This document shows, one piece after another, positions 34,051-38,726 of a DNA stretch of 64,000 nt; positions within the stretch are counted from its first letter, which is position 1, and the number at the start of each line of letters is the position of its first letter. This DNA is from Chamaesiphon sp. (lineage in GTDB: Bacteria; Cyanobacteriota; Cyanobacteriia; Cyanobacteriales; Chamaesiphonaceae). Location: positions 82,687-146,686 of the forward strand of contig CBDFFH010000029.1 in NCBI GenBank assembly GCA_965246715.1, read 5' to 3'. Position numbers and translations under genes: made by a program. The notes under the pieces are model-generated. The model did no database searches and was not told where the DNA came from. It saw only the letters and a list, made by a program, of their open reading frames with translations.

Positions 34051-34298
34051 ACATCAATTCGGGTTAGCATTAGCCTGGAGACTGAAGTCTCGGCTAACAA
34101 TACAAAGTCCGCCTTCGCGGACTAACTAGCTAGTCCGCAAAGGCGGACTTTGTATCACTAGCACCGATTTGCGGAAAGTGCGATCTTGGGGTTTCCCCAA
34201 GTAGAGCACCTTTTCAAGACACAATCGAGTGCGGGACTCAAACGAAGCCAGTATCCTTAACCCGTTGGCGTAGCCTCTCCGGTAGGAGAAACTCACGT
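34051..34298. mobile_element. MITE/REPIN-like element with two nested inserts (34171-34221, 34265-34289)
   Basis: Degenerate TIR; 6-bp direct repeat TAAATA on both sides; alignment to the 21923 copy exposes the inserts. Confidence 0.85.
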
Positions 34299-34326: not shown

Positions 34327-35490
34327 ATGAGCGATAAATCTCCGCGTTGCATCGTTTGTAAGCAGATCTTTGACGATCGACACTGGCATTATCATCAACT
34401 GTGCGCATCCTGTGGGGACTTCAACGATCGCAAGCAACAAGCAACAGCCGATCTCAGTGGCAAAATTGCAGTAGTTACCGGAGCGAGGGTGAATATCGGT
34501 TATGGTGTGTGCCTGCGATTGTTGCGCTCTGGTGCGCGGGTAATTACCACTACGAGATTTCCCCATCACGCAGCCCAAAAATACAGTCAGGAACTTGATT
34601 TTGAACAGTGGCGCGATCGATTGCAAATTTATCCGCTCGATCTGCGCGATTTAGCGAGGGTAGAAGCATTTACGCATTATCTCGATCGCGTTTATCCACA
34701 GCTAGATATTATCGTAAATAATGCCGCGCAAACGATTCGCCGTCCGCCTGCTTATTATCGACATTTAATCGAGTTAGAAGCTCAACCTGTCAGCCAGTTG
34801 GCTCCACAATTACAGCCTTTAATTATCGCTGCTGCCGATCGGATCGAGACGAGCGATTCCGCTGCTAATTTAGCCCCACTTCAACAGCATGACTTAGTTG
34901 CGGGATTATCGCAAATTGCCCTACTACCTGAAGACGATCTCGATCCGGCATTATTTCCGATCGACAAATACGATCGTGATGGTAACCAAATTGACTTACG
35001 ATCGACAAATAGTTGGTTACTCAGAGATGATGAAGTGAGCATCGTCGAATTATTAGAGGTTCATGTTGTCAATGCGATCGCACCATTTGTAATTAATAGT
35101 CGGTTGAAAGCAATGATGAATCGGCATCAAAATAAAGTCGATCGATATATTATCAATGTCTCGTCACAAGAAGGCAGATTTGAAGGAGTCGATAAACCCT
35201 GGCGACATCCACATACGAATATGGCAAAAGCCGCACTCAATCAAATGACCCGCACCTGTGCTAAAGAATATGCCAAACACGGGATCTTTATGAATGCAGT
35301 CGATCCGGGTTGGATTAGTTTTCAACATCCACATCCGATCGCTACCGCAATGCTCGATCGCGGGACGGAACCACCATTTACAATTTTTGATGCCGCAGCG
35401 CGAATTTGCGATCCGATTTGGGTTGGATTAAATACAGGTAATAATCAGTTTGGTAGATTATTTAAAGATTACAAAATTGTCGATTGGTAA
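34327..35490 (+). CDS. Atypical SDR-family oxidoreductase with N-terminal Cys/His (Zn-ribbon-like) motif
   Basis: CIVC...HQLCASC; VTGARVNIG; VNNAAQT; HTNMAKAALN; AVDPGW. Confidence 0.85.
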   Translation: MSDKSPRCIVCKQIFDDRHWHYHQLCASCGDFNDRKQQATADLSGKIAVVTGARVNIGYGVCLRLLRSGARVITTTRFPHHAAQKYSQELDFEQWRDRLQIYPLDLRDLARVEAFTHYLDRVYPQLDIIVNNAAQTIRRPPAYYRHLIELEAQPVSQLAPQLQPLIIAAADRIETSDSAANLAPLQQHDLVAGLSQIALLPEDDLDPALFPIDKYDRDGNQIDLRSTNSWLLRDDEVSIVELLEVHVVNAIAPFVINSRLKAMMNRHQNKVDRYIINVSSQEGRFEGVDKPWRHPHTNMAKAALNQMTRTCAKEYAKHGIFMNAVDPGWISFQHPHPIATAMLDRGTEPPFTIFDAAARICDPIWVGLNTGNNQFGRLFKDYKIVDW

Positions 35491-35609: not shown

Positions 35610-37388
35610 ATGACATCAACAGAATTAGAATTAATAATCGATCGAGCCATCCAAGATCGATCGACCCATCTAGATCTTTACCAGAAACAAATATCTAGTC
35701 TACCAGACTCGGTCGGCAATCTTACCGATTTAGTCAGCCTCCGTTTAACTGACAATCGCCTGACGACACTACCTGCAAGTATCGGCAATCTCACCAATTT
35801 GCGCGAGTTGAGATTATATAAAAATCAGCTCAAAATGTTACCGGATAGCATAGCCAATCTCCAGAATTTAACCTGGCTGAGTTTGAGCCTCAATCGACTG
35901 ACTGTATTTCCAGAGAGCATCACCGAGCTAACTAATTTAACAGGGTTGCTGTTGAATGGCAATCAAATGGTAGTATTGCCGCAAAGTATTAGCAAGCTGA
36001 CTAATTTAACCTATCTCGACATCACTGGTAATCCGCTGATGGATCTATCGGTACTGCACCATTTACCAAAATTAAAAACCGTCAAATTTTGGGGTGTAAA
36101 TTTACCGCGTAAATATTGGATCGAGCTAAAATCTCTGTCTTCAGCTTTGCAGTTAGTTAATGGTGCGATCGTCGAATATCAAATTAAACCTGAGAATTTA
36201 AGACGTCTTGGCAAACAGTCACTGATCTGGCTACCTAATAATCTGGATCTATACTTACCGACAGAAGATAGAATAAACGAGAAGATCGATACTCCAGAAT
36301 CACTCAGCTTTTTTGGTAAGGTTGCCAAACAAATGTTTGGAGATATACGTGAAAATTTAGAGAAAAAATTTCCAGAGCACCATCTCCATTTGTCAGGAAA
36401 TCAATTAACTTTACTGCCATCCAATATCGGTAAATTGAATCAGCTAACATGCATAGAATTAAGAAGCAATCAATTAACATTTATTCCAGCAAGTATCGGC
36501 AATCTAACTAATCTTACTCATTTAGACTTACGATGCAATCAATTATCTTTCTTGCCTAGCAGCATCGATAATTTAACCAGTCTCACACATCTGTATCTCG
36601 GTGGTAATCTTTTTGATTCCTTACCAGATGCGATCGGTGAAATGAGCAAACTAACGCACTTGCATGTCAACGCAAATTCATTAACATCATTACCAGAAAG
36701 CTTCGGCAAGCTTTCTGGGTTGATAGAATTAAATATGAGCAATAATAATCTCAGTAGTCTGCCACTGTATCTCGACACGTTGACTAAATTAAAGAAACTA
36801 AATCTATCTAATAATAATCTTACTGAGTTACTCAATAATATTGGAAACTTAGTCGATGTAGTTAGCCTCAATCTAAGTGGCAACCAATTGACAAAGCTAC
36901 CGACAAGTATCAGATTCCTGCGTGAGTTGACGAGTTTAGATTTATTAGGAAACCCACTTACCGATTTATCAATTCTCCAATATTTGCCCAAATTGCAATC
37001 GATACATTTTATGGGGTATTTGCCTCGTCGATATTGGACTAAATTTAGCGAATGGAAATCTGAGTGGTTACTAGACGAAACAAACGCAGCAATAAGACAG
37101 AGATTAATTCAACAAATTGGCTATGAAAGAATTTGTCAGGAATTGGATTCAATGCAGCTCGATACTTGGCGAGAATATACATTACTCAAAATTGATGGAG
37201 TAGAAAGCTCTTATGATTGGCGTAGAAGTAGAACTATTCACGAACCGATGGTATTACTCAAGATGACATGTCCATCTACAGGACATATTCATGTTTTGCG
37301 CGTACCGCCTGACATGACGAGTGCGGAGGCTGCGATTACCTGGGTAAATCATGGCATTCATCCTGATAGATTTATGGTTCAGACGTAA
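35610..37388 (+). CDS. Leucine-rich-repeat protein with C-terminal DUF6745-like domain
   Basis: LxxLxLxxNxLxxLPxSIGNL repeats; C-terminal WLLDETNA...LLKMTCPSTG...LRVPP...AITW. Confidence 0.88.
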   Translation: MTSTELELIIDRAIQDRSTHLDLYQKQISSLPDSVGNLTDLVSLRLTDNRLTTLPASIGNLTNLRELRLYKNQLKMLPDSIANLQNLTWLSLSLNRLTVFPESITELTNLTGLLLNGNQMVVLPQSISKLTNLTYLDITGNPLMDLSVLHHLPKLKTVKFWGVNLPRKYWIELKSLSSALQLVNGAIVEYQIKPENLRRLGKQSLIWLPNNLDLYLPTEDRINEKIDTPESLSFFGKVAKQMFGDIRENLEKKFPEHHLHLSGNQLTLLPSNIGKLNQLTCIELRSNQLTFIPASIGNLTNLTHLDLRCNQLSFLPSSIDNLTSLTHLYLGGNLFDSLPDAIGEMSKLTHLHVNANSLTSLPESFGKLSGLIELNMSNNNLSSLPLYLDTLTKLKKLNLSNNNLTELLNNIGNLVDVVSLNLSGNQLTKLPTSIRFLRELTSLDLLGNPLTDLSILQYLPKLQSIHFMGYLPRRYWTKFSEWKSEWLLDETNAAIRQRLIQQIGYERICQELDSMQLDTWREYTLLKIDGVESSYDWRRSRTIHEPMVLLKMTCPSTGHIHVLRVPPDMTSAEAAITWVNHGIHPDRFMVQT

Positions 37389-37423
37389 GATCTCCAAACC
37401 GTCCTCTGCTAGGATCGATCTGT

Positions 37424-37499
37424 GATGGTATAGCTTAAGTGGTGAAAGCTACTGCCTTCTAAGCAGAATATGATGGCGGTTCGAGTCCGCCTGCTGTCA
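37424..37499 (+). tRNA. tRNA-like element A1, anticodon TCT (Arg); atypical, possibly non-functional
   Basis: Acceptor GATGGTA/TGCTGTC (3 G-U pairs); D arm GCTT-AAGTGGTGA-AAGC; CTGC-CTTCTAA-GCAG; T arm GGCGG-TTCGAGT-CCGCC; no CCA. Confidence 0.7.
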
Positions 37500-37503
37500 C
37501 ACT

Positions 37504-37576
37504 AACAACGTAGTTTAATTGTTAAAAACGCTGTGGAGTATACCCAGTCATGCAGGTGCGATTCCTGCCGTTGTTG
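37504..37576 (+). ncRNA. tRNA-like element B1 with no canonical anticodon loop
   Basis: Acceptor AACAACG/CGTTGTT; D stem GTTT/AAAC; bulged arm CTGTGG-AGTATA-CCCAG; T arm GCAGG-TGCGATT-CCTGC. Confidence 0.7.
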
Positions 37577-37598
37577 TCTTGTGTTAACATGTATCTGT

Positions 37599-37671
37599 GA
37601 GAGCATAGTTAAATTGGTGAAAATACGTCCCTTTCACGGATGCGATGGCGGTTCGAGTCCGCCTGCTGTCA
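37599..37671 (+). tRNA. tRNA-like element A2, anticodon TTC (Glu); atypical, possibly non-functional
   Basis: Acceptor GAGAGCA/TGCTGTC (one G-G mismatch); CGTCC-CTTTCAC-GGATG; T arm and 3' end identical to A1; weak D stem; no CCA. Confidence 0.7.
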
Positions 37672-37675
37672 CACT

Positions 37676-37747
37676 AACAACGTAGTTTAATTGTCAAAAC
37701 GCTGTGGAGTATACCCAGTCATGCAGGTGCAAACCCTGCCGTTGTTA
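37676..37747 (+). ncRNA. tRNA-like element B2 (near copy of B1)
   Basis: Stems identical to B1; differences confined to the D loop and T loop (TGCAAAC). Confidence 0.7.
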
Positions 37748-37878
37748 TTTTTAAATTTTTATTATTACTAAGCAATTGCTGCTTTACATTGAAGCACAGC
37801 TTCGATCTCGTTGAGCTGTCTGCTAGTAAAAACGCCGCTTGTGGGTACCCTGGATTTACTGTTATCACTAGTAATCTA

Positions 37879-38091
37879 ACGTCAGTTCGGGATAAGCATT
37901 AACGATCGATGACTCCTAGCTTCGTTTCTACACCGCCCTCAAATGAATTTGGGGCTAATGGCAAAAGTTCTCTGAAGAGAACTGCTAAATTCCCCAGTTC
38001 GTTTCAACGAACTTTTGCCATTAGCCCGAACTTCTAGTTCAGGGCGGTGCTTGAACGGAGCAAATCAATTTTCCTTATCCCGAACTGACGT
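37879..38091. mobile_element. MITE/REPIN-like element, type CCGCCCTCAAATGAAT
   Basis: Perfect TIR ACGTCAGTTCGGGATAAG/CTTATCCCGAACTGACGT; 7-bp direct repeat TAATCTA on both sides. Confidence 0.9.
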
Positions 38092-38227
38092 TAATCTAAA
38101 CTCGTGCAAGATGTGAGTAAACCAAAAGATATACCTTTAGTAAGAGGGTAAAAATAGGGATCTCTTTGAGAATGGCTAATATTGGCTCAACAGCGCCAAG
38201 ATATTTCCCGCGAATACTGAAATACCG

Positions 38228-38572
38228 ATGAAACTAACGTTACCCGCGCTGCGATCGAGAAACTATCGGCTATTTTTTACCGGACAAGGCATCTCCTTAA
38301 TCGGGACGTGGATGACACAATTGGCAACAATATAGGTAGTCTATCAATTGACAAATTCCGCCTTTATATTAGGTTTGGTGGGATTCATCGGACAAATTCC
38401 GAGTTTAGTGTTGACTCCATTCGGTGGCTCGCTTTCCGAGCGATTCGATCGCCATAATAACTCAAGGATTGGCGATGGTTCAATCGCTTACCCTGGCTGC
38501 TTTTACCCTCACTGGAACGATTAATATTTGGCTGCTATTGGGATTGGGATTTTTGCAAGGAGTCATCAATGC
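38228..38572 (+). pseudogene. MFS transporter pseudogene (5' fragment)
   Basis: MKLTLPALRSRNYRLFFTGQGISLIGTWMTQLATI* (TAG 38333) VVYQLTNSAFILGLVG..., then a frameshift to LAMVQSLTLAAFTLTGTINIW...QGVINA, where it is truncated. Confidence 0.82.
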
Positions 38573-38726
38573 ACTCAGCTAGTCCTCGACAGATCTGTTC
38601 TTGTTCTTCGGCCTGTCTTGCTAATAATATTCCGGCATCTGAACTCAGTTCTAAGTCTGAATATCGGACTACTAACTGCCGCCGATCGTAAAAATTATAG
38701 GGGAGTGGAGAAATACACTCTGTCAT
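38560..38726 (-). mobile_element. IS1380-family transposase N-terminal fragment
   Basis: YSDLELSSDAGILLARQAEE matches the IS1380 'LSSDaG' N-terminus; only about 55 codons remain. Confidence 0.75.

Follow-up and report, generated by a model that had tools for sequence, protein, structure and literature searches.

Bacterial Y RNAs such as YrlA mimic tRNA in a permuted topology and are bound, via a dedicated element, to the Ro60 protein encoded next to them. Type III toxin-antitoxin systems (ToxIN, CptIN) combine an RNase toxin with a pseudoknot repeat RNA. The locus analysed here is a tandem array of two tRNA-like RNAs, A and B, behind an SDR-fold gene. With its tRNA elbow and an arm not suited to decoding, B resembles YrlA; however, A-B gave no match to the YrlA model (Rfam RF02553), has the ordinary topology and does not adjoin Ro60, since the TROVE gene of this genome lies on contig C43 and the array on C29. 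The locus shares with the type III systems a protein gene accompanied by a short tandem array of structured RNAs, but here the RNAs are cloverleaves with their own -10-like boxes, they lie downstream of an SDR-fold gene, and they match no Rfam antitoxin family.

Tandem irregular tRNAs with diverse anticodons have been described as irregular polycistronic tRNAs and allo-tRNAs (Mukai et al., PMC5389517), and the part of that paper considered here suggests that they are tied to toxin-antitoxin systems and that many are not used in translation. In that part of the text they have 8/4 or 9/3 folds (some 7/5) and acidobacteria-like sources, no SDR partner is given and the string 'cyanobact' does not occur. 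In contrast, A and B both have 7/5 folds and short variable loops, neither combines an 8/4 or 9/3 fold with a long arm, and B carries a fixed bulged hairpin. In tRNA-ProX and ProRS-x (PMC10404621), too, a single tRNA body occurs with several anticodons and is encoded next to its own protein gene. According to the portion of that paper used, however, this gene encodes a prolyl-tRNA synthetase and the tRNAs take part in decoding, whereas A-B has an SDR-fold partner, a second unit predicted not to decode and many arms without U33; moreover, the neighbour listings of the module loci contained no synthetase isoform. The trn operon or L-arrays of cyanobacteria (PMC8421152) are likewise accessory, unusual and patchy tRNA genes, but they comprise, in the part of the source used, up to 43 different charged tRNAs, while a locus of our module has a single enzyme gene and, tied to it, one A-B pair in 1-3 copies.

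In the literature searched, mostly the main texts of freely available papers, we found no description of an SDR-linked tRNA-like pair, and the parts considered of PMC6514570, PMC7609411, PMC7159879 and PMC5733544 do not mention the module.

The array and its protein neighbours

The window, i.e. the whole stretch of 64,000 nucleotides analysed, comes from a Chamaesiphon genome, and all the genes of the module lie on its forward strand. Unit A1 (37424-37499) has a variable arm with anticodon UCU (37458-37460) and is followed by unit B1 (37504-37576), a constant RNA with G55, a D loop without GG and the bulged hairpin CUG-U-GG-AGUAUA-CC-CAG at 37531-37547. Unit A2 (37599-37671), with anticodon UUC (37633-37635), is followed by the second constant unit, B2 (37676-37747), whose hairpin lies at 37702-37718 and which is followed by a T-rich run. 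A previous sequence-only reading had proposed two back-to-back cloverleaves per unit, four in all, and this was confirmed: all four pass the gathering score of 29 bits of the Rfam tRNA model (RF00005; A1 54.5, B1 44.8, A2 58.1, B2 44.6 bits), and ARAGORN called them Arg, Tyr, Glu and Tyr, respectively. No Rfam family more specific than generic tRNA matched any of them. The proposed duplication is also present, but its extent is not that of the whole ~175-nt unit; what is repeated is the 3' half of A plus all of B, with a spacing of 171-172 nt (56 nt at 98% and 56 nt at 91%).

As described in that reading, A1 and A2 have identical T arms and 3' acceptor strands and different anticodon arms. These arms mimic those of host tRNAs: positions 37451-37466 of A1 (16 nt) are identical to the host tRNA-Arg(UCU), and positions 37628-37640 of A2 (13 nt) to the host tRNA-Glu(UUC). 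Both units present U33 in a canonical 7-nt anticodon loop, on a 4-bp stem in A1. The host genome has a complete tRNA set elsewhere, Arg-UCU and Glu-UUC included; it also carries a separate tRNA array near the TROVE gene (G000:C43:56800-61040) and an odd tRNA-like pair (Ser-UGA, Ile-GAU) with no SDR link (G000:C2:295134-295283).

Other arguments of the sequence-only reading fared less well. Weak or mismatched acceptor stems had been proposed, but a mismatch (G3.G70) occurs in A2 alone, and the stem of A1 is paired in 7 of 7 positions, three of them G.U; the argument from the acceptor stems is not supported. The 3-bp extension TGT/ACA is real in the window and in most units of the genus, while other families are without it. 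The missing CCA had been taken to mean that these are not housekeeping tRNAs; it is uninformative because only 1 of the 43 host tRNAs parsed (2 further tRNAs were skipped) encodes CCA, and 32 of 68 A homologues do encode it. The SDR gene, the fixed hairpin of B and the -10-like box in front of each unit had escaped that reading.

Extended -10-like boxes, predicted from the sequence to be promoters, lie 8 nt 5' of A1 (TG-C-TAGGAT, 37407-37415) and 8 nt 5' of A2 (TG-T-TAACAT, 37582-37590), the latter as the promoter of the second unit. The promoter/terminator scanner reported neither a full sigma-70 -35/-10 promoter nor a separate terminator at the array. Single A-B units fold modestly, with z-scores of -1.7 and -2.7; it is conservation and covariation that argue against chance cloverleaves. 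Note that contigs of two sequencing runs show strain variants, including indels in the variable region of A1. Also in this part of the window are a MITE-like, 217-nt nested palindrome with 20-nt terminal inverted repeats (37877-38093; 141 hits in the genome, 88 of them longer than 150 nt), a short DDE_Tnp_1_4 transposase remnant on the reverse strand (38538-38726) and, upstream of the SDR operon, a long hairpin that is probably a repeated palindromic element (34086-34162).

The zinc-finger SDR gene (34327-35490), judged by its conservation and linkage, is what defines the module and is the constant protein partner of the RNAs. The assignment of its 387-aa product rests on Pfam (adh_short), conservation, alignment, the structure model and linkage. 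Four conserved cysteines (Cys8/11/26/29), a C4 zinc finger, precede a Rossmann fold with the motifs TGARVNIG and HPHTNMAK. The model (pLDDT 85) led Foldseek to the SDR Rossmann fold, with 15-20% identity and a query TM of 0.43-0.53 to solved SDRs; no RNA-acting enzyme was among the hits listed. As in classical SDRs such as FabG, the Rossmann fold and the Ser and Lys of the active-site region are present. The protein differs from them in its low identity, the added zinc finger, an insertion and a Thr in place of the catalytic Tyr: T297-N-M-A-K301 aligns with YSAAK of the solved SDRs, so that Thr297 stands at the Tyr position of the classical YxxxK, and the motif is invariant in 22 sequences. 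The SDR family is large (an estimated 12,000 or so matching stretches). Outside the genus, the best named relatives of this SDR are Calothrix, Nostoc and Microcoleus proteins, and Calothrix sp. NIES-2098 and NIES-2100 are among the named carriers. In two homologues (P0116, P0120) the SDR is fused to an N-terminal DUF6602 domain.

Between the SDR gene and the array, at 35610-37388, lies a gene for an LRR protein of 592 aa with a C-terminal DUF6745-like domain, the accessory repeat protein of the genus. We considered LRR-DUF6745 as the defining partner and rejected it. Its own genome contains 11 matches to the C-terminal part, which is therefore not a domain particular to this locus, and in most other families the gene is replaced by a pentapeptide-repeat gene, which lies upstream in 23 of the 34 short-type loci (defined below) with enough flank (Pfam checked on eight). 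With PADLOC 2.0, the SDR and LRR proteins matched 0 families.

Units B and A

The stems of B covary. In 41 distinct copies, 98.4% of the cells are paired and two-sided changes occur in 11 of 21 pairs, which 0 of 500 shuffles reach, although this shuffle control is inflated by related sequences and the pair count is the more robust measure. The absence of covariation, or a match to a known family, had been named as a result that would speak against a tRNA-mimic cassette; what we found was covariation and, in Rfam, generic tRNA only. In the anticodon arm of B, three pairs are followed by a bulged U that never varies, then by GG/CC and a loop of six bases (U-GG-AGYANA-CC), with the hexaloops AGUAUA in 27, AGUAGA in 12 and AGCAUA in 11 of 59 copies. 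G55 stands in place of U55 in 57 of the 59, and GG occurs in the D loop of 8. A decoding tRNA presents a 7-nt loop with U33 on a 5-bp stem, and B a 6-nt loop and a bulge; going by these features, B is unable to decode, and its fixed bulged hairpin is, by inference, a putative protein-binding site. B was also considered as a tRNA-Tyr, and this was rejected: it has no U33, no long arm and an invariant bulge, and loops AGCAUA and AGUUUA are seen as well.

Unit A has a fixed body. Of the 68 distinct units, 65 have every position of the acceptor stem paired, 63 have A73 and 61 have C3:G70; G1:C72 is constant, and the T loop has U56 in 46. Where CCA is encoded, B starts with its last A. Upstream of 58 of the 68 units, at a distance of 11-19 nt, there is a TAnnnT box, compared to 32% in shuffles, which makes promoter-A-B the probable repeated unit; several loci instead have A starting 8 bases after the SDR stop codon. 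These comparisons show that annotation wrongly presents A-B genes as ordinary tRNAs for Tyr, Glu, Ala or Val.

On this body sits a fast anticodon arm. The arm regions, 19-28 nt long, comprise 62 distinct sequences among the 68 units, and 23 different arms are found on 26 units whose 5' acceptor strand and T arm are identical. A stem of at least 4 pairs around a seven-base loop is formed in 54 of the 68 (shuffled mean 10), and in multi-unit loci all the arms within a locus differ (15/15). In 30 close pairs the divergence was 0.18 for the arm, 0.03 for the rest of A, 0.02 for B and 0.085 for the four-fold sites of the SDR gene, i.e. the arm evolves at roughly double the synonymous rate, in a comparison for which the best-matching units were chosen, gaps were counted and the pairs are not independent. 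Covariation, divergence below the synonymous rate and the variation of the arms thus uphold the earlier proposal of a constant scaffold with interchangeable anticodon arms, under selection and not decaying. Ten of the 68 arms share 12-21 exact nt with the cognate host tRNA (0 of 1360 shuffles), the tRNA set of this genome serving as proxy for all carriers; nine of the ten, both window arms included, come from its own genus, and the other 58 do not copy the set used. The fast arm could alternatively reflect relaxed constraint together with gene conversion with host tRNA genes.

The anticodons of the 54 parsed arms are UUC (18), GAC (7), UGC (6), GUC (6), GCU (5), UAC (3), UCC (2) and seven singles. 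The sequence-only reading had tied the loops to U34-modified targets of colicin D and RloC. This tie was not supported by the comparison: U34 is found in 31 of the 54, Arg-UCU once and a Lys anticodon in none, and the common feature is C36 (44) followed by A37 (53). Codons starting with G, which C36 would read, make up 33% of codons, compared to the 44 of 54 arms. U33 is present in 29 of these arms and in 43 of 43 host tRNAs. Pairing of the A loop with the UGGAG of B was tried as a cause of the C36-A37 bias and rejected: the GG of B is paired in its own stem, and loci with the long type of SDR, which are without B, share the bias.

A constant acceptor end (G1:C72, C3:G70, A73) beneath many anticodons, and the CCA encoded in 32 of 68 units, would suit RNAs that are charged via that end and misread codons under stress, with B and the SDR protein regulating them; tRNA-ProX (PMC10404621) and the allo-tRNAs (PMC5389517) are precedents, as the parts of those papers used present them. 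We consider mistranslation of this kind quite unlikely. The neighbourhoods listed contain no synthetase gene, 25 of the 54 arms are without U33, the arm lengths spread over 19-28 nt, and B, by its predicted structure, cannot decode.

Recognition by the cognate synthetases depends on G3:U70 for Ala, a long arm for Ser, G73 for Asp and U73 for Gly. The A units have G3:U70 in 0 of 6 with an Ala anticodon, the long arm in 0 of 5 Ser, G73 in 0 of 6 Asp and U73 in 0 of 3 Gly; in the Glu, Val and Met units an identity based on the anticodon stays plausible. These data bear on the idea that A units are spares, standing in for host tRNAs that are cut when the cell is infected or stressed, a role like that of the cyanobacterial trn (L-array) genes, with B as a processing aid. 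The window arms are exact host loops, the identity of the Glu-UUC, Val and Met units is plausible, and tRNAs of the Anabaena trn operon are charged in vivo, according to the part of PMC8421152 used. Nevertheless, a spare with the same loop would also be cut, the Ala, Ser, Asp and Gly units are without cognate identity elements, a genome holds only 1-3 such anticodons, this genome has its separate tRNA array on C43, and the link to the SDR gene would stay unexplained. Altogether, this role seems very unlikely.

Linkage and spread of the module

Judged by its recurrence across genomes, the array proved to be the RNA part of a conserved cyanobacterial module, in which a zinc-finger SDR gene is joined by one to three A-B units and, in most cases, by a repeat-protein gene. 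Outside the genus, SDR loci were taken as all the hits of three overlapping searches (251, 121 and 301 genomes) and split at 52% identity into a short and a long type. An A-B unit lies within 1.5 kb downstream of the SDR gene in 34 of 40 short-type loci; the remaining 6 comprise one A with a broken B, four loci with none (three from one genus) and one at a contig edge. Within the genus, arrays of one to three units were seen in 7 of 26 relatives, downstream of the same LRR gene and at varying places in the chromosome, and the short SDR is present in 6 of these 7 carriers, compared to 0 of the 19 others; among the six, one has the SDR gene on another contig than the array and one has an SDR gene with a stop.

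The linkage holds in the reverse direction. A search with a pattern for B alone gave 15 loci, 10 in metagenome stretches and 5 in 400 other genomes, and an SDR gene lies upstream in 15 of the 15; 12 of them were newly found, the other three being known from the SDR search. An earlier, too narrow model of B, derived from 16 close sequences, matched its own genome alone among 151, a sample with few carriers. In total, 52 loci have 1-3 A-B units each, and the linkage spans at least eight families. The module is patchy and variably placed, with LRR or pentapeptide partners, and in 5 of 14 wide A-B loci (L262, L263, L268, L272, L274) an AAA+DUF2201 (metallopeptidase-vWA) pair lies upstream of the pentapeptide gene, the SDR gene and A-B. 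One genome (G059) has, besides its SDR-linked A-B unit, another one 5 kb away that no SDR gene adjoins (L031:8308-8380). Arrays broken by insertions within a unit were seen at L035 (G015:C41) and L189 (G797), and the SDR gene of G015 has an internal stop.

A mismatched acceptor in A2 and the broken units of G015 and G797 are what duplicated tRNA genes would show if they were decaying by chance beside an unrelated enzyme gene. Against decay speak the covariation, a divergence lower than that of synonymous sites, and an SDR linkage that extends over at least eight families. This explanation is largely refuted already by the covariation of B and the SDR linkage, and the probability left to it is minimal.

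Viral contigs gave 0 matches to the first B pattern, and no A-B unit was present at the 8 viral SDR loci. A looser pattern matched viral contigs 6 times, with no tRNA call, and these matches were taken as chance. Distant SDR homologues (31-39%) do occur on large viral contigs (L225-L230), and at one such locus (L227/L228) a seven-tRNA cluster lies 2.6 kb from the SDR gene on the opposite strand. Plasmid SDR hits are 38-45% identical. In other phyla, 80 distant homologues (42-45% identity), drawn from 4 of the 64 parts of the collection, have no such array, with any tRNA call in 5. Since 4 of the 40 short-type and 10 of the 27 long-type loci also have no such RNA in the flank examined, the SDR protein can apparently work without the RNAs.

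The long-type SDRs form a separate clade in the tree (support 1.0; short type 0.90; deep nodes weak). Upstream of the long-type gene, in 17 of 27 loci, there are tRNA-like genes whose bodies are other than A or B. This second family (L052-L055, L061, L178-L188, L212, L214, L220, L222, L252), with 1-4 genes per locus, has variable anticodons and the D loop GGAAGAG. Of 29 distinct genes, 24 have an 8-bp acceptor, mostly in an 8/5 fold, and 23 have C36; downstream of the SDR there is an LRR_6 gene. In 1 of 14 wide loci (L264:6377-11512), SLOG, Hen1 and Pnkp genes lie directly upstream of two tRNAs and the long-type SDR gene, on the same strand. Among the 80 distant homologues, a DEAD-box-helicase cluster was found in the flank of 14 and a cold-shock cluster in that of 9; at L065 and other Bacteroidota loci the SDR gene adjoins DEAD-box helicases, a DnaJ-KTSC protein and cold-shock proteins.

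That both SDR clades adjoin tRNA-like genes with the same C36 bias (44/54 and 23/29) points to a property of the enzyme. The SDR protein might itself act on tRNA, by modifying, inactivating or repairing it, perhaps at C36-A37 loops, with A-B as its dedicated substrate or RNA antidote. The C4 zinc finger with a non-classical active site, and the DEAD-box-helicase and cold-shock neighbours, are in line with this. We regard it as unlikely, since the intact-looking SDR loci without RNAs speak against a toxin that needs them, an enzyme of fixed specificity leaves arms faster than synonymous sites unexplained, and the Foldseek hits listed include no enzyme acting on RNA.

A proposed bait-and-handle explanation

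The paired tRNA-shaped genes likely serve as bait for tRNA-attacking enzymes, not for protein synthesis. Our best explanation, held tentatively and at slightly less than an even chance, is that A-B is a bait-and-handle RNA, tied to the SDR protein in a conflict over tRNA anticodon loops. Each A-B unit would be transcribed from its own promoter as an RNA of roughly 150 nt, in which B would be the docking site for the SDR protein or its repeat partner and A would display an anticodon loop resembling that of a host tRNA. An invading factor would cut, modify or bind the A loop, and the outcome would be either that A soaks up this factor or that the bound SDR protein changes state and a protective response follows. 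More A-B units would widen the range of loops watched.

The bait explanation is the best fit to the conserved frames, the predicted non-decoding handle, the fast and partly host-copied arm, the arrays with different arms, the patchy spread and the repeat-protein partners. In support of it are also the linkage of SDR and A-B in both directions, the purifying selection on the body of A and on B, the poor design for decoding (U33 in 29 of 54, arms of 19-28 nt, absent identity elements) and the neighbours, namely Hen1-Pnkp (1 of 14 wide long-type loci) and the AAA+DUF2201 pair (5 of 14 wide A-B loci). Several observations stand against it. We know of no anticodon nuclease that the C36-A37 bias fits, and tRNA-Lys, a common target of such nucleases, is absent from the 54 arms. 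The SDR and LRR proteins have no PADLOC match, and 58 of 68 arms are not copied from the host set used, which is this genome's as a proxy. Some A units look fit for translation, with Rfam tRNA scores of up to 68 bits and, in the window, arms with U33 and canonical loops. Finally, there are SDR loci lacking the RNAs, and Hen1-Pnkp is a single case.

Possible, though we think it rather doubtful, is an RNA-programmed guard system, in which copies of host anticodon arms, set in a fixed tRNA frame and tethered to the zinc-finger SDR protein, sense attack on chosen tRNAs. The second tRNA-shaped handle would tether the frame, and the arm would be an exchangeable specificity element, renewed by recombination with tRNA genes. 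The SDR family would have taken up RNAs twice and would represent an unrecognised class of tRNA-linked enzymes.

Where bacteria, phages and competitors are in conflict, one of the main weapons is the cutting of tRNA, and the known answers to it are repair enzymes and phage tRNAs with altered loops. If the bait explanation is true, the module would add a different kind of answer, encoded in the chromosome, in which a frame that does not decode displays anticodon arms open to exchange; the arm sequences would then reveal which tRNAs are attacked in nature. Being small, and present in filamentous genera of which strains are in culture, the module is directly testable. Whatever the mechanism, the module offers the first way into the function of a large SDR family that had been uncharacterised.
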